A stretch of DNA of 64,000 nucleotides from a virus, in the IMG/VR virus record IMGVR_UViG_3300044568_003939, one strand, 5' to 3'. Under the pieces are notes generated by a model that searched no databases, had not been told where the DNA came from, and saw only the letters and a list, made by a program, of their open reading frames with translations. Both the position numbers and the translations under genes were made by a program. Positions 16,733-54,496 of this stretch are shown piece by piece; position 1 is the stretch's first letter, and each line of letters opens with the position of its first letter.

Positions 16733-16980
16733 TTTTTACATTTTAGACAAAAACTCCTTTACAAATCTCAATTTTTAGATTATAATAATCGCATAACAAA
16801 CGGCAACAACAAGTTGCCCAACATTTTTTCAAAATCTCAATGCGCGCCTTGTGCTACAAACAAGGTAACGACCGTGGTTGAACGGCTTGGATCTGAAAAG
16901 AGATGCAATGACAGTAAGTTTAAATATGGAGCCGTGAGTCCCTTAGCGCACACCAATGCGCAACTCACAAATTTTCAAAA

Positions 16981-17055
16981 CCTCCTGTAGCTCATCGGAA
17001 GAGCGGCTTCTTTATAAGGGGCGGGTAGTTGGGTCAGCACCAACCAGGAGGACCA
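16981..17055 (+). tRNA. tRNA-Ile(TAT), non-canonical T loop
   Basis: CCTCCTG/CAGGAGG acceptor, loop TT-TAT-AA, T arm GTTGG-GTCAGCA-CCAAC, ACCA end. Confidence 0.75.
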
Positions 17056-18290: not shown

Positions 18291-18365
18291 CGCGGGTTAA
18301 TCGAGTGGTTCAGATAGGTGTCTCATAAGCATCTCACGGGAGTTCGAATCTTCCACCCGCAACCA
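18291..18365 (+). tRNA. tRNA-Met(CAT), initiator-like
   Basis: C1:A72 mismatch (CGCGGG...CCCGCA-ACCA), CT-CAT-AA. Confidence 0.75.
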
Positions 18366-18370
18366 ATTTT

Positions 18371-18460
18371 GGGACGAAGGCAACTGTTAGATGCGTTGCG
18401 GCGGTCTGTAAAACCTCTACTTAAGAAACACCGTGGGTGCAATTCCCTCTCGGCCCACCA
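18371..18460 (+). tRNA. tRNA-Tyr(GTA), atypical
   Basis: CT-GTA-AA loop, ACCA end; imperfect stems. Confidence 0.55.
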
Positions 18461-18463
18461 TCC

Positions 18464-18610
18464 TTTATTGTTAAAGCATCTTTGGTTTGATGCTGTCCAT
18501 ATCGAGAACGGACTATGCCGGAGCATACGAACGAAGTACAAGTTCTATGGTGCAAACGGAAAATGCGCTCAAAGGCGCGCGAGGTGGTTCAATTCCACAG
18601 ACAATAAACA
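18464..18610 (+). ncRNA. Expanded tRNA-like RNA, copy A
   Basis: Homolog of 21273-21409; acceptor-, D- and T-like arms plus extra arms. Confidence 0.7.
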
Positions 18611-18622
18611 TTTTTGATTTTT

Positions 18623-18708
18623 GGGTAGGTATACCGTTAAGGAGACGGTTCAGACTGTAAATCTGACGCCGCAAGGCTCGCTGGGATCGTTCCCCAGACT
18701 GCCCACCA
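18623..18708 (+). tRNA. tRNA-Tyr(GTA)
   Basis: TCAGA-CTGTAAA-TCTGA, long variable arm, ACCA. Confidence 0.85.
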
Positions 18709-18808
18709 ATTTGTATGAACAGCCGCTTTTCGTGTCTAGGGAAAAGCTCCACAATATCAAGGTTATGATATGGCGCTGGTGAAATTCCAGAACGGATTCA
18801 AATTTTTA

Positions 18809-18883
18809 CCTGATGTAGCTCAGAGGAAGAGCATCCGCTTGATAAGCGGAAGGTCGAGATATCGTAATTCTCCATCAGGACCA
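18809..18883 (+). tRNA. tRNA-Ile(GAT)
   Basis: CCTGATG/CATCAGG, TT-GAT-AA, ACCA. Confidence 0.85.
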
Positions 18884-18885
18884 AT

Positions 18886-18959
18886 TGAGGATTAGCATAA
18901 TGGTAATGCATCTGACTTTGACTCAGAACATAGAAGTTCGATTCTTCTATCCTCTACCA
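18886..18959 (+). tRNA. tRNA-Gln(TTG)
   Basis: TCTGA-CTTTGAC-TCAGA, CCA. Confidence 0.85.
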
Positions 18960-18965
18960 ATTTAT

Positions 18966-19054
18966 GGGCTGGTATGATCGAGCTGAGCTGATGATTGCAT
19001 ATTGCAATTGTTCTAAGGAACCTTAAGTGAGTTTGAATCTCACACTGTCCACCA
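18966..19054 (+). tRNA. Degenerate tRNA (possibly Cys GCA)
   Basis: T arm GTGAG-TTTGAAT-CTCAC and ACCA end; weak anticodon stem around TTGCAAT. Confidence 0.35.
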
Positions 19055-19067
19055 ATTTCAATGAGAG

Positions 19068-19173
19068 ATTAGAGGTAAGTTGATATACAACACCTTCTAT
19101 AGCATTATGGTAATGCGCCGACATGATATGTTGGAGATTCCCGGGTTCAAATCCCGGAGAAGGGTGCTCTAAT
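19068..19173 (+). ncRNA. tRNA-like core (GAT loop) in an extended acceptor helix, no CCA
   Basis: Cloverleaf at 19091-19166 continued by ATTAGAG/CTCTAAT pairing. Confidence 0.5.
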
Positions 19174-19221
19174 AAACAACGAGGCGTCAGACCACGCCTA
19201 CAACATTGAGAAAATTTTAAT

Positions 19222-19296
19222 GGAGGTAAAGCTTTAATGGTGAAGCATCGAGCTTTTAACTCGAAGAACTGGGATCGTTACCCAGTGCCTCTACCA
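19222..19296 (+). tRNA. tRNA-Lys(TTT)
   Basis: TCGAG-CTTTTAA-CTCGA, ACCA. Confidence 0.85.
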
Positions 19297-19303
19297 ATTT
19301 CAT

Positions 19304-19378
19304 GGGGTTGTAGCATAACGGTAATGCACCTGCTTTGCAAGTAGTAGATTGTCAGTTCGAATCTGACTAGCTCCACCA
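19304..19378 (+). tRNA. tRNA-Ala(TGC)
   Basis: GGGG 5' end with G3:U70, TT-TGC-AA, ACCA. Confidence 0.85.
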
Positions 19379-19486
19379 ATTTCCCTTGGTATCTACCCGC
19401 AATTTGGGTATTGCTCACGAGTGTGAAGCAAGTCAGAAGTTAGGCTGGTCGCGACAGTAATCCTTCTGATGGCCAAGGCTCTTTTC

Positions 19487-19560
19487 GCGGGATTAGTTTA
19501 ATGGTAAAATGATAGTCTTCCAAACTGAAGTCGAGAGTTCAATTCTCTCATCCCGCACCA
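19487..19560 (+). tRNA. tRNA-Gly(TCC)
   Basis: GCGGGAT/ATCCCGC, CT-TCC-AA. Confidence 0.9.
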
Positions 19561-19568
19561 ATCACAAT

Positions 19569-19639
19569 GGGCGATCTCTGGCATGGAGGTCTAAAAACCG
19601 AAAGGTATCCTCTGGGTTCGATTCCCAGTCGCTCCACCA
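19569..19639 (+). ncRNA. Minimal tRNA-like RNA lacking a normal D arm and anticodon arm
   Basis: GGGCGA/TCGCTC acceptor, perfect T arm CTGGG-TTCGATT-CCCAG, ACCA. Confidence 0.55.
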
Positions 19640-19647
19640 ATCATAAC

Positions 19648-19722
19648 GGGCTGTTAGTAGAATGGATATAACGTTGCGCTACGAACGCAAAGATCTAGGT
19701 TCAATTCCTGGGCGGCCTACCA
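19648..19722 (+). tRNA. tRNA-Arg(ACG)
   Basis: TTGCG-CTACGAA-CGCAA, CCA. Confidence 0.85.
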
Positions 19723-19866
19723 ATTTTCGCTAATGTATTCGGGTACGATGCATCGGCAACTCTACCAGTGAAGCAAATCATATTTGCGAAGAATTCGTGA
19801 CCAGTGAAAGTCGGTTTAACGGTAGAGCAATTTTAATACATAGTGTAAAGGCATAAGATATAAAAA

Positions 19867-19943
19867 GATGCATTAGGGTAATTGGTTATCCCGCCACGCT
19901 TTCACCGTGGAGATTACGAGTTCAAATCTCGTATGCATTGCCA
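19867..19943 (+). tRNA. tRNA-Glu(TTC)
   Basis: CCACG-CTTTCAC-CGTGG, GCCA. Confidence 0.85.
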
Positions 19944-19950
19944 TTCTTTT

Positions 19951-20025
19951 GGGTCGTTCGTTCAACGGATAGGACTGAGGATTTCTACTCCTCCGATGCA
20001 GGTTCGATTCCTGCACGACCCACCA
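19951..20025 (+). tRNA. tRNA-Arg(TCT)
   Basis: GAGGA-TTTCTAC-TCCTC, ACCA. Confidence 0.85.
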
Positions 20026-20108
20026 TTTTCTGATACTGTGGTGGTATCGCTTACAGGAGTTTTCGGTCCCTACACTGTGTCTTTGCTACACGGAACCGAT
20101 AAATTTTT

Positions 20109-20185
20109 GAAGATGTAGCTCAGCTGGTTAGAGCACTTGCCTGTCGAGCAAGACGTCGTGGGTTCGAGCCCCATCATTTTCGCCA
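20109..20185 (+). tRNA. tRNA-Asp(GTC)
   Basis: CTTGC-CTGTCGA-GCAAG, GCCA. Confidence 0.85.
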
Positions 20186-20196
20186 TTCTTTTCATT

Positions 20197-20273
20197 GGCC
20201 GTGTAGCCGAATTGGTATAGGCAGCGAACTTAAAATTCGTAATCTGTCGGTTCGAGTCCGACCATGGCTACCA
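20197..20273 (+). tRNA. tRNA-Leu(TAA), short variable loop
   Basis: GCGAA-CTTAAAA-TTCGT, ACCA. Confidence 0.85.
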
Positions 20274-20333
20274 TTTTATAGCTTAAAGGTTAATGCAACA
20301 AACTCTGAAATTATGATTTGTATAAATACTTTT

Positions 20334-20963
20334 ATGTTATATACAATCTATCAAGTAACCAATTTGCTTAACAGCAAGATATACATTGGAAAGCATCAGA
20401 CAACTAATCCTGATGACTCTTATTATGGTTCAGGTGTTGCACTGAAGAAAAGTATTGCTAAACATGGTAAAGATAACTTTAAGAAGGCGGTATTATTTGT
20501 ATTTCAAACCGAAGAGGAAATGAATGCAAAGGAAACAGAATTGATTACTGAAGAATTTGTTGCTCGTAGCGATACATACAACATGGGAGTGGGTGGTGAA
20601 GGCGGCGCTCATTTTAAAGGCAAATCTCATTCGGCTGAAACTGTTGAACGTATCAAACAATCACTTGGTTCTGATGAGAATAAACAAAAACTCATTGAAG
20701 CTGGACGTAAAGCAGGCTCTTTATCCAAAGGAAGAAAGTTAAGTGCAACTGCTCGACAGAATATGTCTGACGCTCAGAGAAAAGCTATCTCCGATGAGAC
20801 CAAGAAAAAAATTTCAGAATCATTAAAGAAATTTAATGAAGAAAATCCAGGCCACCTCAAAGGTCTAGTAAAAAGAAAACGCAAACCTTTAAGTGAAGAA
20901 ACTAAGGAAAAGCTTAGACAAATTCAACTTAAACGTTGGCAAAATAAAAGGCTCGTAGCTTAG
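20334..20963 (+). CDS. Free-standing GIY-YIG homing endonuclease with NUMOD3-like repeats (Seg-like)
   Basis: YTIYQVTNLLNSKIYIGKH...YYGSG...YNMGVGGEGG; SEETKKKIS-type repeats; late promoter at 20321. Confidence 0.85.
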   Translation: MLYTIYQVTNLLNSKIYIGKHQTTNPDDSYYGSGVALKKSIAKHGKDNFKKAVLFVFQTEEEMNAKETELITEEFVARSDTYNMGVGGEGGAHFKGKSHSAETVERIKQSLGSDENKQKLIEAGRKAGSLSKGRKLSATARQNMSDAQRKAISDETKKKISESLKKFNEENPGHLKGLVKRKRKPLSEETKEKLRQIQLKRWQNKRLVA

Positions 20964-21026
20964 CGGTTTTAAAGCGTTCGACTCATAATCGAAGGATCCT
21001 CGGTTCGAGTCCGAGCGGGCCCACCA
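20949..21026 (+). tRNA. tRNA(CAT), Ile2/Met type; overlaps the endonuclease stop codon
   Basis: TTCGA-CTCATAA-TCGAA, T arm, ACCA. Confidence 0.8.
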
Positions 21027-21272
21027 TTTTATATACCGTCTCGCGGCGTCACCGCTAGTGTGTTCACGAAAGAACGTAACAAAACGGCAAGTTGTTACCC
21101 ATATGAAAGAAGCTTGTAGCGCAAGTAAAAATCGTAAGCCAAACGTTGAAGTGATGTTCAACAAAGGGTGCCCCGGCAGTTTGATGCCGTTATCTCGCAA
21201 TTTGCTGGAGCATGCGTTAAGCATTGCGCAGAAGGCAAATGATGCAATTCGTTGCAGCGAGAATCATTTACT

Positions 21273-21409
21273 TTTATTGTTAAAGCATCTTTGGTTGATG
21301 CTGTCTGCCCAGACTATGACAATACACCGAACGCTGATCATGTTCAAGTGTGTAATGTAAAATGTGCTCATAGGCGCGTGAGGTGGTTCAATTCCACAGA
21401 CAATAAACA
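21273..21409 (+). ncRNA. Expanded tRNA-like RNA, copy B
   Basis: Homolog of 18464-18610 with compensatory changes. Confidence 0.7.
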
Positions 21410-21615
21410 TTTTTACAATGGAAATCGGTGAGTTAGGTGCATATTAGGTTATGCATACAGGCTTGAAATTCCGTGTGGGTCAATATCCATACATTGTAAA
21501 TATAAAAAGCCATATGAAGGTTACGGGCTTCCTTCTCCAGCTATAAGGATTCATATAGCTAGTGCCAGTCCTGCATAACGCATTGAGAGTGCATACTCTA
21601 TGGACAAATTTTCAA

Positions 21616-21690
21616 TGGCTAGAGGGAATCTGGCGAGTGAATTCATAACGGGGTGCGACTCCCCGAGATTCCACAAACACTCTAGCCACC
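21616..21690 (+). ncRNA. CCA-ending RNA with a T-arm-like hairpin but non-cloverleaf topology
   Basis: GGCTAGAG/CTCTAGCC-ACCA; GGAATCT/AGATTCC; CGGGG-TGCGACT-CCCCG. Confidence 0.55.
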
Positions 21691-22084
21691 ATTTTTGGGT
21701 ATCACTCCTCTGATAGGGAGAAGAAAAGAACAAGTCCCTGCGCTAGCAATGCAAACCCTAACACCTGAATTGACAGGAACCCACCTTTTTTAGAAGAGTA
21801 ACATAACGGCAGTTATGGTTGAGGTTCGAATCCCCATTTGTTGGAAACAACAATCTGGCGACTTATATTGGTTCAATTCCAATCTCTTCTGCATTTTTAG
21901 ATATGTAAAGGGAAGGACGTTCAGTTAGTCCTATAGTTTGCAAACTCCCGCAATCAAACTTTATGCCATATCTATTTTTCAATGCAACACGCAACCGTAT
22001 AGGTTGCTTCGATATAGGAATAGTCATAAAAGCTTAATGACGTACCATATCTGAGAGGTTTTGACACCAGTGCTTGCTCCAATT

Positions 22085-22310
22085 TTAACATCGGCGTGGA
22101 AAGCAGACACGCAGGAAAATGTGGTTGGTATGAAAGTGCTCTTGGAGATACACCGAGATGAGAGCATGAGTAGGCCGACCTTGACCGAAGAGAAGAGCCG
22201 TGTATGGCGAGTAAACAGAATGCAAACCAACTCCGAATCGAGATTGAGAGGCATGTCCTGTTGGTAGTAATAACTACGTCTAATCAGAGTAGCGCCTGAT
22301 ATGTTAAACA
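22085..22310 (+). ncRNA. Giant tRNA-like RNA (~225 nt) with a large insert at the anticodon position
   Basis: TTAACAT/ATGTTAA, GCGTG/CACGC, CAGGA/TCCTG, GTAG/CTAC and ATCAG/CTGAT arms. Confidence 0.5.
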
Positions 22311-22811
22311 TTTTCTACTGCTCCAGCAGCGACCGTTCGCTACGGAAACTGTAAAGCATGGCTTACAACACTGGAGGAAGGAAGCCACAAAGCACCTGTC
22401 TGTTAAATGCGCGGTTCTTCCGCAATAGGGTGTAAAGATGACAGCCGGAAAGACGGCACAACGTCAGCAGGAAAAGCAGGTTCAATGCCTGTCGCGAATG
22501 GCCATAAACCTCAGCGGGCCGGTAGGGATCGGACTGACACCTTTATCTGTCGAGAATATCTACACACGGCTGTGAAGACCTATGCTGATGATCCGTCTGA
22601 GGCGATGTAAATCGCTACAAAGTGGCCCTTCCATGATTCAGCGAAGATGCTGTATATACGTGAGGGGTATATGCATATACAGGTCTGACAGATAAACAAT
22701 TTTTGCGTCCTATGCGTTTTCTCACCGTTTTTGCGACGATGCAATTGAAGCGCAATGAGCGGAAAAAACGGATCAGGTTAGAGGTTATCCAGTAAAAACC
22801 TCACCAATTTT

Positions 22812-23033
22812 ATGACAAACAAACAAGTAACATTATACAAAGGAACTCGTGAAGAGTTTGAAGCAAAATATGAAGATTACAAACCAGTGGGAAAATCATT
22901 CAAAGAACAATTGGATGCTATTCAATCTATTGGAATGGTATTTTATTTTTTAGAAACATCAACTAAGGATGAAGAAGGTAATTATCTAATAAATCGTTTA
23001 GTTGAAAATGATTTCATTATAATCGCATCATAA
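22812..23033 (+). CDS. Hypothetical protein inside the RNA array
   Basis: 73-aa AT-rich ORF with typical phage codon usage. Confidence 0.55.
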   Translation: MTNKQVTLYKGTREEFEAKYEDYKPVGKSFKEQLDAIQSIGMVFYFLETSTKDEEGNYLINRLVENDFIIIAS

Positions 23034-23279
23034 ACAATTTTGCGGTCATTGAGGGGTATTCGTCACTAAGACGTTTGTGCAAGGTAGTCAACATAAAACG
23101 CACGATTCAGCGATGAGTTAATGCAGTTGATAGAAATCGAGTCTTTCGAGGCGATTATTCGGTTGGGAACACATTGCACGATATAGCGACCTGAGCCGCA
23201 AACCCATTTCCAATTACCTGACTGCAAGCGGCTATACCTGATAAAGTAGTGCGCAGTAGGTCAGGAATTGGTCAATTTT

Positions 23280-23348
23280 ATGAGAGGATCATACGGAGAT
23301 CGCTAGGCCCATAGTCTAGAGAGGAGGTTAAATTCCTTCCCCTCATAA
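23280..23348 (+). tRNA. Degenerate tRNA-like element (CAT loop), no CCA
   Basis: CTAGG-CCCATAG-TCTAG; T-like arm GAGG-TTAAATT-CCTT. Confidence 0.4.
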
Positions 23349-23650
23349 TTCGTATTCATACGCGATAAAGTATGACGCTGCTAAGAGTGTATCCTTAGAT
23401 AGTCCCAGCCCTGGATGAGTCGTAGGCCGTAATGCTATGGGCACATCATTTTCTATCGTGCGTTTTGATCGCCCGAAGTATTCGAGGAAAACAGACTGGA
23501 AGGTAGTCTATATACACATTGAGTATGTAGGTGTTCGGCGAGACAGTACTTGTAGAAAAGTGAAGAGGGATCAATGAAAAGTGAGAGTCTGCAAAACGAC
23601 ACCACACCTCTTCAGCGATAGAAAAACTTTCGTATATATAACTATACAAA

Positions 23651-24770: not shown

Positions 24771-24845
24771 CCCTACTTAGCTGAGGCGGATTAGCGCAAG
24801 ACTGAAAATCTTGAAAGGTTGGATCGTTACCAACAGTAGGGGCCA
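24771..24845 (+). tRNA. tRNA-Phe(GAA)
   Basis: CAAGA-CTGAAAA-TCTTG, CCA. Confidence 0.85.
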
Positions 24846-24858
24846 TTTTTTTATATAC

Positions 24859-24930
24859 GGAAGTTGTCCGGTTGGTCGAGGACACTGTCTTGAAAACGGA
24901 AGAGGGCGACGAGCTCTCCGTGGGTTCAAA
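24859..24930 (+). pseudogene. Truncated tRNA-Ser(TGA), broken in the T loop
   Basis: GGAAGTTG 5' end, CT-TGA-AA, variable arm, GTGGGTTCAAA, then no 3' T stem or acceptor. Confidence 0.75.
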
Positions 24931-24954
24931 GGTTCGTTTTGTATAAATAAACCC

Positions 24955-25800
24955 ATGGACTATAAGCGAATCTATAATGACCTTATTACATATCGTCAAA
25001 ATAATGTATTGTCTAATGGTTATATTGAAAAACATCATATAATTCCAAGATCGTTAGGTGGAAGCAATGATAAAGAAAACATTGTTTCATTAAGCGGGAG
25101 AGAACATTATATTGCACATTTATTACTTGCTCGATTTAATCGTTGTAGTAAAACGGCATATGCTCTTTGGATGATGCAGATGAAAAATTCTAAAGATTGT
25201 GATCGCCCTCGTATCAAGAGCGGCAGAATGTATGAATGGATTCGTAAGGAAATCATTAAGTATACTTCAAGGAATAATAGGATTACATCTAAAGGCGAAC
25301 GTAATAGCCAACATGGTACACGTTGGATTTGTAACATCAAATTGCAAGAAAACCGAAAGGTGAGTAAAGACGAACTTATTCTTGATGGATGGATTCTTGG
25401 GCGTAATAAATGGGTTGTCAGTACTTATGTTCCAAAGAAATATATTAACATATGTAATTTAGTTCTTCAATCAAATTCACGTATTATTTACGGCGAAGAT
25501 ATTCCCGATGGATGGGTAAAAGGAAAAAATAAATGGTTAACCCGTAAAAGAAAAGATACCAAGACTAGAGTTAAGAAAACTAGAGCCGAACTTAAATTTT
25601 TAAGTGATGAAAAACTCAAAGGATTGGCAAAAACATTATGGGCTGAATTTTTTATTAGTAATCATGAGTCTCTTAATTCTTTTGCAAAAGAAAAAGGCTT
25701 AATAAGAATGACAATAAAAGGATGGTTTAAAAAGTATATACCTGAGTATCCATCAGATATTACAACCAAATCATTAAAGAAACATATAACGGGTACTTAA
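24955..25800 (+). CDS. Free-standing HNH homing endonuclease
   Basis: MDYKRIYNDLI...YIEKHHIIPRSLGGSNDKENIVSLSGREHYIAHLLL; late promoter at 24942. Confidence 0.85.
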   Translation: MDYKRIYNDLITYRQNNVLSNGYIEKHHIIPRSLGGSNDKENIVSLSGREHYIAHLLLARFNRCSKTAYALWMMQMKNSKDCDRPRIKSGRMYEWIRKEIIKYTSRNNRITSKGERNSQHGTRWICNIKLQENRKVSKDELILDGWILGRNKWVVSTYVPKKYINICNLVLQSNSRIIYGEDIPDGWVKGKNKWLTRKRKDTKTRVKKTRAELKFLSDEKLKGLAKTLWAEFFISNHESLNSFAKEKGLIRMTIKGWFKKYIPEYPSDITTKSLKKHITGT

Positions 25801-28338: not shown

Positions 28339-28584
28339 ATGAAAATCAACGCAACTAAAAAGTTTGAAGCTGAAATAAGTGAAGCTGAAGTAAAGCGCAT
28401 TGCAGTTCAATGCATACGTGACGCTGTCGGCTGGCATACCGATCACTATGTTGAGAACGGCAAACTTTACATTAGCAAAACCATGAATACCTCTCACCGT
28501 TGGACCGAAGAAATTGTGGTTGGTGAAGCTTCGCCCACCGACATTGCAGCTCAACACGTTATCAATCAAATTTTAAAATCTTAG
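28339..28584 (+). CDS. Hypothetical protein
   Basis: Likely start MKINATKK after TTTACA-17-TACAAT; stop overlaps the tmRNA 5' G. Confidence 0.55.
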   Translation: MKINATKKFEAEISEAEVKRIAVQCIRDAVGWHTDHYVENGKLYISKTMNTSHRWTEEIVVGEASPTDIAAQHVINQILKS

Positions 28585-28906
28585 TGCCTGTTCCGGTTTC
28601 GACATGATTCACAGGCGCTGCTTGCAACCAAAAGTCTGCTCGACTCTAAGAGCACAAAGACAAAAGGCGAAAACACACTCGCATTAGCTGCGTAAGCTAC
28701 GTCACTTCACAGACTCCTCTATGTGAATGTGGCGACGACAGAGGATAGCTTGAGTGTGCAAATACACTCTAGATTGAAGCATTCAAATATGTTTCCCAGA
28801 TTCTTGGATTGAATATAATCAGGCACCGATGAAAAATGTGTTCTATAGTTGTAGAAGAGTAGCGTTAATGTTTCGTGGACGGGGTTCGACTCCCCCAGGT
28901 ACACCA
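28584..28906 (+). ncRNA. ssrA: tmRNA, tag (A)GENTLALAA
   Basis: GTGCCTG/CAGGTAC-ACCA acceptor with G3:U70; GGTTTCGAC D loop; GGAC-GGGG-TTCGACT-CCCC T arm; tag ORF at 28666-28695. Confidence 0.9.
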
Positions 28907-52126: not shown

Positions 52127-53496
52127 ATGGCAACCACCTACCTCACCGAACCTCAAATGGATCAGCTGATTATTCAAGTTCAGCGACTCCGAAAAGGACA
52201 TAAGCTGAATTCTTTGCGTAAAAGATACACCGTAATTGTTGATGATGCGCATCACTATTTCCGCAGCACAACCACTTTAAGGAAGTTCTTAAACTCCTGT
52301 GTTTTTCCTGAAAACTTTCGGATTTTCCGCAATTTTGACAAGGGCGTCAGCATAAATCTTGACTAAATGCATTTTTCTGAAAAAAGTCCTTTACAAGTGG
52401 GATTTTTTAGTGTATAATAATCTCGTAAGGAACCACAATATGTATAAATTCACTAAAACCGAATACTGCCATACACCAATATCCATGGGCGGAGGGACTG
52501 GAGTCGAAACCAAAGTTTCATTCAGCCGCTCGCCCAAGTTGGCTGCATCACTGCAAGGAGTAATTGTTCGCACTGTTCGCGGTGATTGTGAATGTCCTCA
52601 ACTAACCTACATCCGCTTTGAGCGCGATGGTATGATTCTTAGCGAAGGCTGGATTGACTAAACTACACTCATATGAAATTGATTGAAACCACCTCTTTTG
52701 GATATAAGTTTGAAACTAGCAACGGGTGCACTTTTACACGTGAGCGCTTGAAGCCGTGCCACATTGCATATGAACTTGATGGCTGGTATGGCTCACGTTC
52801 GCTATATGAACTTACTGAGCATGACCTCATAACTTTTCCTGAAGCTACTCACCGCATTGCATTGACACAAGATCGCTCGCAAGATGATCCATTTTTTATT
52901 ACTGTTCCTTGCTGGATTAAGAACGGAACCAAACATCAGCTGCAATACATTTCCGACGATGATCAAAACTTTGATCAAGTAAAAATCAAAAAAGTATACG
53001 ACTTCTCCTAAATTATGACAAAACTTGAAGAACTAAACATCGATCTTGAAATTCACGAAGCATCGTACGCAAAGCTGTTTGACCCAGCATACGTTGCGTA
53101 TTGGCTTAAATTTAAAAAACTTGATGTGAATCTTTTAATCCCATCTTATATTAAAATCATCAAAAGTATCAAGGATGAAATTGCAATGATTGAAAGCAAA
53201 AAGAAACCGAAGGCTGAGTCAACAGCTAAGGTGAAGAAAGCTACTAAAACAGCTGTAAAGACAAAGAAAACAGCTAAAACCGCGACAAAGAAAACACCTA
53301 AAAAATGAGTGAAATAAAACTTACTAAAGAAGAAGACGTATTGCTGCGAAGCATGCTAAGAGGAATCATCGCTATTGCGGCTGGTGAGCAACAAGCAGCT
53401 GCTCTGTTTGACAATCAACAACTACAAAGTGGAAATGTTCAAACCGTCAATCGTATGGTTGACTATACCAAAAATTTTATCAGAGAAAACGCTTAA
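52127..53496 (+). other. Small early hypothetical ORFs (52127, ~52440, 52673, 53015 with Lys/Thr/Ala-rich tail, 53305)
   Basis: Follow the promoters at 52085 and 52390. Confidence 0.55.
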
Positions 53497-53497
53497 A

Positions 53498-54496
53498 ATG
53501 AAACTAGCAACAATTGAACGCATTCAAAGCATCACTGCACATCCTAATGCAGACAAGCTTGATCTTGCCACCGTAAGCGGCTATACTTGTATTGTAGGTC
53601 GCGATCAATATGCCGTCGGAGAAGCTGTTGTGCTGATTCAACCAGATACACTATTGCCTGAAGCGCCGTGGAGCGAGATGTTCCGCAAGCGCAGTAATCG
53701 TGTTCGTGCTATGAAGTTGAGAGGCGAATGGAGCTTTGGTATTGTGATGCCATTTTCTACATTCTTTGATGGCATACTGCCAGTGCATTCACTAGCTCCT
53801 GGCTGTGAAGTAAGTCATCTGATTGGAGTCGCCAAGTATGAGCAGCCACAACCGCAGCAACTTGATGCAATGGGTTACCCACCATCTGGATTGCCAAAGA
53901 CTGATGAAGAGCGCTATCAGAACCTTGACGGAACTCTTCCTTATGGCGAACGCGTTGACATCACTCTTAAGATTGATGGCTCAAGTGCAACCTATTTCTG
54001 CAAGATGAATGCAGAGACTGGCGAATATGAAACTGGAATCTGCAGCCGTTCATTGCGCCTCAAACCAGAGTGTGAAAATAACTATACGCGAGCAGAAGCA
54101 CGCTACAACATTTTAGCTAAGCTTAAAGAATATTGCGTCAACAACGGCGTTAGTCTTGCGGTGCGAGGAGAGGTATATGGCGCCGGCATTCAAGCGTTTA
54201 GTACCAATCCGCATGCCGGAGGAGAAGTAAATTTTGCATTGTTTAGCGTATGGGATTTTGAGAAACATGAATACGCTAAACCGTCAGATCTTCACTATTA
54301 TGCTAACCTAGGCTATGCACTCAGCATTCCTTGCGTGCCTTGCATTGAAAAGGATGTGGTGTTGACTCCCGAGATTGTCAAGTATTACGCACAGGGGATT
54401 GATCGCATTGCTGACAAGCCGTTTGAAGGAGTTGTAGTCAAGCACCACTCTGGTTCTTTTAAAGTTTTGAGCCTATCATACGATGAGCGCAAATAA
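53498..54496 (+). CDS. RNA ligase, DRB0094/Rnl2-like with N-terminal OB domain
   Basis: MKLATIERI..HPNADKL; KTDEERYQN; KIDGSS; GEVYG; EGVV; SFK. Confidence 0.8.
   Translation: MKLATIERIQSITAHPNADKLDLATVSGYTCIVGRDQYAVGEAVVLIQPDTLLPEAPWSEMFRKRSNRVRAMKLRGEWSFGIVMPFSTFFDGILPVHSLAPGCEVSHLIGVAKYEQPQPQQLDAMGYPPSGLPKTDEERYQNLDGTLPYGERVDITLKIDGSSATYFCKMNAETGEYETGICSRSLRLKPECENNYTRAEARYNILAKLKEYCVNNGVSLAVRGEVYGAGIQAFSTNPHAGGEVNFALFSVWDFEKHEYAKPSDLHYYANLGYALSIPCVPCIEKDVVLTPEIVKYYAQGIDRIADKPFEGVVVKHHSGSFKVLSLSYDERK

Follow-up and report, generated by a model that had tools for sequence, protein, structure and literature searches.

Two expanded tRNA-like RNAs in a phage tRNA array

The DNA analyzed here (the window) is a 64,000-nucleotide stretch from the IMG/VR virus record IMGVR_UViG_3300044568_003939. 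All of its long open reading frames (ORFs) are on the + strand, and 23 tRNAs were called by ARAGORN between positions 16981 and 26096. Within this tRNA array are two copies of an expanded tRNA-like RNA, copy A (18464-18610) and copy B (21273-21409), which are 85% identical; a GIY-YIG homing endonuclease gene (20313-20963) lies in the array between them. The minimum free energy folds of both copies match the six-helix, tRNA-like shape drawn for them (z = -2.8 and -2.5). The structural elements that an earlier reading of the bare sequence (the original prediction) had described are all in place: a 9-bp terminal stem (TTTATTGTT/GACAATAAA), a 6-bp D-like arm (AGCATC/GATGCT), an extra hairpin (GTCC/GGAC in one copy and GTCT/AGAC in the other), a long arm with a covarying base (CCG/CGG vs ACA/TGT) that ends in GAAC-9 nt-GTTC, a further hairpin that reaches 7 bp, a T-like arm (GTGG-TTCAATT-CCAC), and a 3′ end that lacks CCA and reads ...AAACA then TTTTT. 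The features are listed below; the covariance models R1 and R2 and the homologs in L090, G006 and G007 are described in the next section.

18464-18610, + strand: copy A, expanded tRNA-like RNA, 147 nt (fold; 167.7 bits with R1, 155.4 bits with R2)
18464-18472, + strand: copy A, 5′ strand of the terminal (acceptor-like) stem, 9 bp, pairs with 18600-18608
18475-18494, + strand: copy A, D-like arm AGCAUC-UUUGGUUU-GAUGCU; its 6 pairs are invariant in 9 of 9 homologs, and the loop has GG as in a tRNA D loop
18495-18513, + strand: copy A, extra hairpin GUCC/GGAC with an 11-nt loop, abutting the D arm; a C-G pair becomes U-A in copy B and L090
18518-18559, + strand: copy A, long arm, 3 + 4 + 4 bp with internal loops; 7 of 11 pairs are changed on both sides across the family
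18533-18541, + strand: copy A, 9-nt tip loop GAAGUACAA with the palindrome GUAC at 18536-18539; predicted self-duplex of -4.6 kcal/mol
18563-18580, + strand: copy A, variable-arm-like hairpin; 4 of 7 pairs are changed on both sides across the family
18584-18598, + strand: copy A, T-like arm GUGG-UUCAAUU-CCAC with U54, U55, C56, A58 and G53-C61; the stem covaries in G006 and G007
18600-18615, + strand: copy A, 3′ strand of the terminal stem, then CA and UUUUU, without CCA (sequence)
21273-21409, + strand: copy B, expanded tRNA-like RNA, 137 nt (fold; 145 bits with R1, 140.6 bits with R2)
21284-21302, + strand: copy B, D-like arm with a 7-nt loop (alignment)
21319-21358, + strand: copy B, long arm (fold, alignment)
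21333-21341, + strand: copy B, tip loop GCUGAUCAU with the 6-nt palindrome UGAUCA (GAUC at 21336-21339); predicted self-duplex of -6.6 kcal/mol
21383-21397, + strand: copy B, T-like arm (alignment)
21399-21414, + strand: copy B, 3′ strand of the terminal stem, then CA and UUUUU (sequence)

Several of these parts vary in size among homologs. The terminal stem is 6-7 bp long in homologs and shows compensatory changes (U-A to C-G), the extra-hairpin loop ranges from 4 to 11 nt across lineages, and the hairpin at the variable-arm position has 5-7 bp. The D loop (UUUGGYUU) and the T loop (UUCAAUU, or UUCGAGU in G007, closed by G-C) keep the letters of the tRNA elbow, and the two loops presumably make the tertiary elbow contact. 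An ORF that overlaps copy B (21058-21360) was rejected as a real gene, as it has no Pfam match and reads through the conserved RNA.

A covarying RNA family

Homologs were recovered by BLAST of related viral records and with DNA patterns for the D arm and the T arm, and covariance models were built from seven (R1) and nine (R2) sequences. The homologs form five lineages, found on at least a dozen or so phage contigs in collections of viral and metagenome sequence. Those outside the window are as follows.

A-type RNAs, loop GAAGUACAA: L080 (with the same RNA in L083, L086 and L169, and truncated in L091), L084 and L176
B-type RNAs, loop GCUGAUCA(U/C) or GCUGAUCGU: L087 and L090
A more distant RNA, loop AAAGGCCAA: the complete 146.9-kb genome G006 (L089)
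The most distant RNA: G007 (L088)

Members score 105-175 bits with R1 or R2 (L088 scores 53 bits with R1), and nothing else was convincing. The RNAs of G006 and G007 fold on their own into the same six-helix shape. Across nine distinct homologs, in an alignment fitted to the covariance model, which favors structure, 97.8% of pair cells hold standard pairs, compared with 28-44% in a control in which the partners were slid. Covariation among homologs, which the original prediction had proposed as a check, is well above that of shuffled data: double-sided changes occur at 20 of 41 pairs vs 5.9 ± 1.7 in shuffles, and none of 500 shuffles reached the observed value. Seven of eight helices covary, the sole exception being the D stem, which shows no variation. 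The lineages share only ~50-60% identity outside the core, and compensatory changes in seven of eight helices at this distance demonstrate that the RNA fold is under selection.

The idea that the RNA belongs to no named family was borne out by Rfam searches of three lineages: neither the twins (scan of 18350-21750 of the window) nor the homologs in L272 and L273 have a match at E ≤ 10. ARAGORN makes no call at copies A and B, and blastn found no GenBank phage match to either copy. A scan with an 18-base D-arm pattern returned at least 117 metagenome loci and 62 genome-collection loci, nearly all of them chance matches; only L130, L150, L169 and L176 are real members among the matches listed, and no bacterial genome among the D-arm pattern matches carries a member. 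A first T-arm/3′-stem pattern had zero matches in IMG/VR, owing to a one-base difference in the relatives, and further IMG/VR patterns gave nothing new (L363 is a chance match). No further members were detected by R2 in 47 whole records of related T4-like phages or in 79 loci around RtcB genes. A 156-nt element in L085 shares the T arm and the GAAC/GUUC stem, lacks the D arm and scores 21 bits, so that its membership is uncertain. Two copies occur in the window alone; a single one is present in the complete genome G006, and one was recovered from each of the fragments G004, G007 and G008. Together, the comparisons indicate a real, conserved, previously undescribed and rare family, carried by a small clade of uncultured, probably aquatic T4-like phages.

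Two 105-nt expanded tRNA-like units were also noted in L087 (3898-4002 and 4291-4395, equivalent to L282 9769-9873 and 10162-10266). Each has two variable-region hairpins and lies directly 5′ of a tRNA-Gly(TCC). They match R2 weakly (~22 bits), and in that alignment their anticodon-like arm falls on the extra hairpin of the twins. This suggests that the extra hairpin may be the remnant of an anticodon arm and that the long arm may be an expanded variable region.

Placement among tRNAs and probable processing

Every copy is embedded in a phage tRNA array and has the orientation of the tRNAs. In six of the eight contexts, the start of the RNA is only 1-3 nt away from the CCA of the tRNA or tRNA-like unit upstream of it, and in G006 the next tRNA begins 5 nt 3′ of the RNA. 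No promoter-like site precedes copy A or copy B; strong TTTACA-17-TATAAT sites are located upstream at 16758, 17638 and 17737. Because U54, U55, C56, A58, the G53-C61 pair and the D-loop GG are kept, the elbow and the acceptor/T stack should be intact. These are the parts of a tRNA that RNase P reads, and RNase P probably cuts the RNA from a longer precursor.

The 3′ ends are unlike those of the surrounding tRNAs. An encoded CCA directly follows 19 of the 22 window tRNAs called by Rfam and is offset by one base in a 20th. The twins have no encoded CCA and end in ...AAA-CA-UUUUU, and the 3′ tails of the other lineages are U runs only. We hold that the RNA is probably not aminoacylated, because no CCA is encoded. 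A single-copy relative is carried on contigs from estuary metatranscriptome libraries and from one soil library.

On either side of copy A is a tRNA-Tyr-like unit (18371-18459 and 18624-18710) that has a CUGUAAA loop and an encoded CCA. These had been taken for tRNA-Tyr(GTA) genes; Tyr-like units are indeed present on both sides, but they are non-canonical and are called by neither ARAGORN nor the Rfam tRNA model. The fold of the unit at 18624-18710 is a cloverleaf in which the D stem has 6 bp, the CUGUAAA loop is present and the T loop is odd (AUCGUUC).

Exchange of parts between the copies

The RNA of L087 is a mosaic, with the 5′ flank and extra hairpin of the A lineage and the long arm and 3′ flank of the B type. 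L176 is A-type throughout except for a B-type 3′ flank. The estuary contigs join sequence corresponding to 21030 of the window to 18464, and 18572 to 21378, with tRNA-Met on one side of a single RNA and the B flank on the other. Based on these mosaics and junctions, we infer that the twins are direct repeats that exchange parts. As such, they can apparently cause loss or duplication of the intervening 2.7 kb, a block that includes 12 tRNAs and the endonuclease gene. The original prediction of an interchangeable loop on a constant scaffold agrees with what the homologs show: the tip is a swappable module and the GAAC/GUUC stem below it is constant. The tip of the long arm thus appears to behave as a cassette on a fixed scaffold.

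Self-complementary tip loops

The tip loop is 9 nt long; in the B type, where positions 1 and 9 are G.U (copy B) or G-C (L087), it can be counted as 7 nt. In all three types of 9-nt loop, positions 4-7 are palindromic (GUAC, GAUC or GGCC), and the central dinucleotide varies in such a way that its letters remain complementary (UA, AU, GC). In the B type the palindrome extends to UGAUCA in a 2+6+1 layout, and the variant UGAUCG of L090 still permits a U.G pair. G007 has a GGCA tetraloop at the tip of its long arm in place of the 9-nt loop, and its extra-hairpin loop contains UCGCGA. If the lineages are treated as independent, the chance of such palindromes is ~2e-4 jointly, and ~1e-4 for the three centered ones. 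Nearest-neighbor energies predicted for loop duplexes are -4.6 kcal/mol for A:A, -6.6 for B:B, -8.9 for G006:G006 and -1.3 for A:B, so that pairing of each loop with itself is favored over cross-pairing of A with B.

An arm of ~11-14 bp with a 9-nt loop cannot set a triplet where the ribosome needs it, given the geometry of tRNA; the RNA is non-decoding. A reading of GTAC, GATC and GGCC as restriction or methylation sites is also unsupported, as these common 4-mers are neither specially kept nor avoided in the window (observed/expected 0.61-0.87).

A candidate dimerizing RNA and its alternatives

The interpretation that we favor, tentatively, is that the family consists of stable, tRNA-shaped RNAs that are processed from a precursor and pair through the self-complementary tip loop, most likely as homodimers. 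Copies A and B are two paralogous genes of a new, rare, non-decoding and oversized tRNA-shaped RNA family. The RNA would be transcribed within the tRNA-array precursor and excised like a tRNA, having retained the features recognized by such enzymes, namely an acceptor-like stem stacked on a T arm of 4 bp, the D-loop GG and a canonical T loop; it would not be aminoacylated. In place of the lower half of a tRNA it has three hairpins, including the long arm of ~11-14 bp, whose tip loop is a lineage-specific, swappable module with a self-complementary tetramer or hexamer. Loop-loop (kissing) pairing of these palindromes would generate tail-to-tail homodimers, and copies A (GUAC) and B (UGAUCA) would be orthogonal to each other.

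A bolder version, about which we are doubtful, is that programmable palindromic pseudo-anticodon loops join tRNA-shaped RNAs tail to tail, giving two orthogonal homodimers in the phage of the window. Each dimer would then hold a pair of tRNA upper halves at a set spacing and might, for instance, serve as a bivalent trap or scaffold for tRNA-recognizing enzymes or defense nucleases, with protein contact made through the invariant D arm.

Several points weigh against dimerization. There are only three independent types of 9-nt loop, and the lineages are related; with shared ancestry the palindrome signal falls to approximately p = 0.03-0.1, a rough estimate that is suggestive rather than proof. 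A GUAC kissing helix has 4 bp and is weak, and the tip of the G007 long arm has no palindrome. Pairing with a G34-N-N′ anticodon loop would account for a palindrome just as well. The metatranscriptome evidence consists of contigs only, for which DNA carry-over is possible, and the dimer, the transcript ends and the processing are themselves predictions. Lastly, the full invariance of the D arm suggests a sequence-specific partner that a kissing-loop model does not explain.

This last point leads to the main alternative, possible though on balance unlikely, in which the RNA is a tRNA look-alike that binds a protein or enzyme through its upper half and D arm, and the palindromes are incidental. 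Candidate factors include RNase P, the CCA-adding enzyme, a modification enzyme, a host defense sensor or a phage protein. A 25-nt stretch comprising the D arm, its flanks and the first bases after it (AAAGCAUCUUUGGYUUGAUGCUGUC, window 18475-18497) is identical in all lineages, the sole exception being a D loop that is 1 nt shorter in copy B of the window, and it stayed fixed while the other helices diverged by compensatory change. Little variation is seen in the GUGAG linker or in the T loop either, and G007 keeps the scaffold with a different tip. The D arm is therefore suspected to be the contact site of a sequence-specific protein or RNA partner.

The gene content of these phages may also be relevant. 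An RtcB RNA ligase gene (PF01139, E = 3.5e-64; L280 15519-16724) lies directly 3′ of the G006 tRNA array, an RtcB copy with 68% identity is on L287, a contig of the 97% relative of the window (L002), and the window encodes an RNA ligase (PF09414) at 53375-54496. Phages of this clade thus carry predicted RNA repair enzymes. However, no candidate partner emerged, with no Ro60/TROVE gene in G006 or four partial relatives, and protein binding leaves both the exchange of tips on a kept flanking stem and the recurrence of palindromes unexplained.

The palindrome contains the complement of a triplet, and hence the RNA could instead bind tRNAs, an option that we consider improbable. The tip loop would be read in the manner of a T-box specifier, as a codon plus a purine (UAC-A, AUC-A/G, GCC-A), and would sequester, shield or sense tRNA-Tyr(GUA), tRNA-Ile(GAU) and tRNA-Ala(GGC) through their anticodon loops. 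Each loop does contain N-N-C-A complementary to U33-G34-N35-N36 of a G34 tRNA. In T-box RNAs, the specifier codon has a conserved purine after it and tends to end in C; the window itself encodes Tyr-like and Ile(GAU) tRNAs. Left unexplained, however, are the conserved G at loop position 4 and the fact that the first two "codon" letters are always mutually complementary (~1 in 64 by chance). Moreover, ARAGORN found neither tRNA-Ala(GGC) nor tRNA-Tyr in the examined G006 array region, although host tRNAs are possible targets, and G007 does not have the loop at all.

We give little credence to the original prediction that the RNA is a non-aminoacylated display of anticodons (GUA, GAU), acting as a decoy for anticodon nucleases or as a synthetase ligand. 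Its description of the RNA as a tRNA mimic stands, given the acceptor/T stack and the elbow formed by the D-loop GG and the T loop; the display of an anticodon is not supported. In its favor, the loops are exchangeable and centered on GUA, GAU and GGC, the B-type CUGAUCA shares six of seven letters with the anticodon loop of tRNA-Ile(GAU), and RtcB and RNA ligase are consistent with a conflict over tRNA cleavage. However, all three loop types have C where a purine is expected at position 37, two of the three (A and G006) have A where U33 is expected, and the long arm with its 9-nt loop is unlike tRNA in geometry. Nor does the loop follow the neighboring or phage tRNAs: in L087 the unit immediately before the GAU-loop RNA is a Tyr-like tRNA, the A-type RNAs of L080, L084 and L176 have other neighbors, and in the G006 array region, where the loop is GGC-centered, the only tRNA-Ala detected by ARAGORN is Ala(TGC), with no tRNA-Tyr. 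The G007 lineage lacks such a loop.

Finally, it is hardly credible that the copies are decaying tRNA genes or recombination repeats without RNA function, the 85% identical repeats merely driving gain and loss of the 2.7-kb tRNA block: the single copies of L087, L176 and the metatranscriptome contigs do resemble A x B recombinants, and many other non-canonical tRNA-like units occur in the array, but the compensatory changes in seven of eight helices reflect selection on the fold and a single copy is intact in the complete genome G006.

Other contents of the array and the source phage

Genes in the window include those for ribonucleotide reductase, T4-type RNase H, PhoH, DNA ligase and RNA ligase, and a virion protein has ~40% identity to its counterparts in T4-like cyanophages. 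Megablast with the first 20 kb of the window detected no close GenBank phage DNA, and the related IMG/VR fragments are near-identical or 83-97% identical. Given this gene content, the lack of a close GenBank phage and the relatives in IMG/VR, we assign the window to an uncultured T4-like myovirus.

A transfer-messenger RNA (tmRNA) at 28584-28906 was identified by Rfam (76.9 bits) and not called by ARAGORN. The tmRNA of the relative G008 (L282 9386-9766) has a long tag ending in ...GELALAA and is located upstream of its copy of the expanded RNA, indicating that the array order has been rearranged between relatives. A second homing endonuclease gene, of the HNH type (24811-25800), is also embedded in the window array.

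The array includes further tRNA-like units. The unit at 19562-19640 ends in CCA and has a short D arm and a UCUAAAAAC loop region with a possible CUA or UAA-type triplet. It is called by neither ARAGORN nor Rfam, and its counterpart in L084 directly follows the A-type RNA. The ~2.2 kb between 21410 and 23650 are nearly ORF-free and consist of self-closed structured units, several of which end in NCA and a U run like the twins. Examples are the units at 21792-21897 (AGAAGAG/CUCUUCU stem, T loop UUCAAUU, 3′ end GCA-UUUUU), 22085-22312 (3′ end ACA-UUUU) and 22543-22696, whose terminal stem, UUUAUCUGUC/GACAGAUAAA-CA-AUUUUU, is similar to that of the twins. R2 scored none of the structured units in 21410-23650 as family members. 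Evidently, tRNA gene finders overlook a sizeable part of the content of phage "tRNA arrays."

Comparison with known systems

To our knowledge, stable tRNA-like RNAs of phage tRNA clusters have been recognized since the 1970s, when "species 1 and 2" of T4 were described, and none has an assigned function. The family reported here offers an unusually clean handle on such RNAs, with its covarying fold, invariant D arm and a tip that is exchanged yet self-complementary.

The closest analog in size, place and general design is T4 RNA C (species 1 RNA, rnaC; NC_000866 70908-71046), a stable RNA whose function has been unknown for decades (PMC3014915, PMC9697503). It is ~139 nt long, and its gene lies among the tRNA genes of a T4-type phage, with a GIY-YIG homing endonuclease gene close by (segB; in the window, the gene at 20313-20963). 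Like the twins, it has an acceptor-like stem, a canonical T arm, a long hairpin at the variable position and a long central arm. However, its predicted fold lacks the D-like arm and the extra hairpin, and its tip loop is a non-palindromic 4-nt loop. Homology was not detected: the T4 region (L082) has no match to R1 (E ≤ 10) or R2 (E ≤ 5), and the sequences align poorly.

Canonical tRNAs (RF00005) share the T loop and D-loop GG elbow letters with the family. The twins differ from them in having no RF00005 match at E ≤ 10, no ARAGORN call and no encoded CCA, and in the arm of ~11-14 bp that takes the place of a 5-bp anticodon stem with a 7-nt loop, U33 and a purine at 37. Selenocysteine tRNA (tRNA-Sec) and allo-tRNAs, in which the acceptor and T stems form a stack of fixed length (13 or 12 bp; 9/4, 8/5 and 8/4 types), are similar in that the window copies are 9/4 and have a 6-bp D stem and a long variable-type hairpin. 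In the family, however, the length of the acceptor stem is not conserved (G006 has 7 bp, G007 has 6-7 bp), the D loop has 7-8 nt rather than 4, and there are an extra hairpin and the ~11-14-bp arm with its 9-nt loop; there is no UCA anticodon, no CCA and no Rfam tRNA-Sec match at E ≤ 10. We also rejected tmRNA, as the twins have U3-A instead of G3:U70, are 140 nt long and have no tag ORF, and a separate tmRNA exists in the window.

YrlA Y RNAs (RF02553), which are partners of Ro60/Rsr and are linked to RtcB operons, likewise have a tRNA-like elbow, and RtcB adjoins the G006 array. In YrlA the RNA ends are on the Ro-binding stem, opposite the tRNA-like module, whereas in the family described here they form the acceptor stem. 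A YrlA/Ro60 RNA was rejected, as there is no RF02553 match and no PF05731 (TROVE) protein in the complete phage G006 or four partial relatives, in searches whose controls did match.

Kissing-loop sites provide a functional analogy to the tip loops, without homology. The dimerization initiation site (DIS) of HIV-1 has a 9-nt loop of two purines, a 6-nt palindrome and one A, and yeast tRNA-Asp with the GUC anticodon forms dimers in crystals via near-self-complementary anticodons. The loops of the family have the same arrangement of flank, palindrome and flank (2+6+1 in the B type; 3+4+2 in the A and G006 types, with A-rich flanks), and their self-complementarity is kept via compensatory change, although in three independent types only. 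The 4-nt palindromes are shorter than that of the DIS.

A precedent for self-assembly comes from ROOL and GOLLD, phage RNAs near tRNA islands that form RNA-only homo-oligomers (PMC12286853). Like the twins, they are structured RNAs of phages and prophages that lie beside tRNA islands. They differ in length (500-800 nt), in their unrelated folds and in forming 8-mers or 14-mers, and neither has an Rfam match in the window. If dimerization of the expanded tRNA-like RNAs is true, it would link small phage RNAs to these self-assembling ones.

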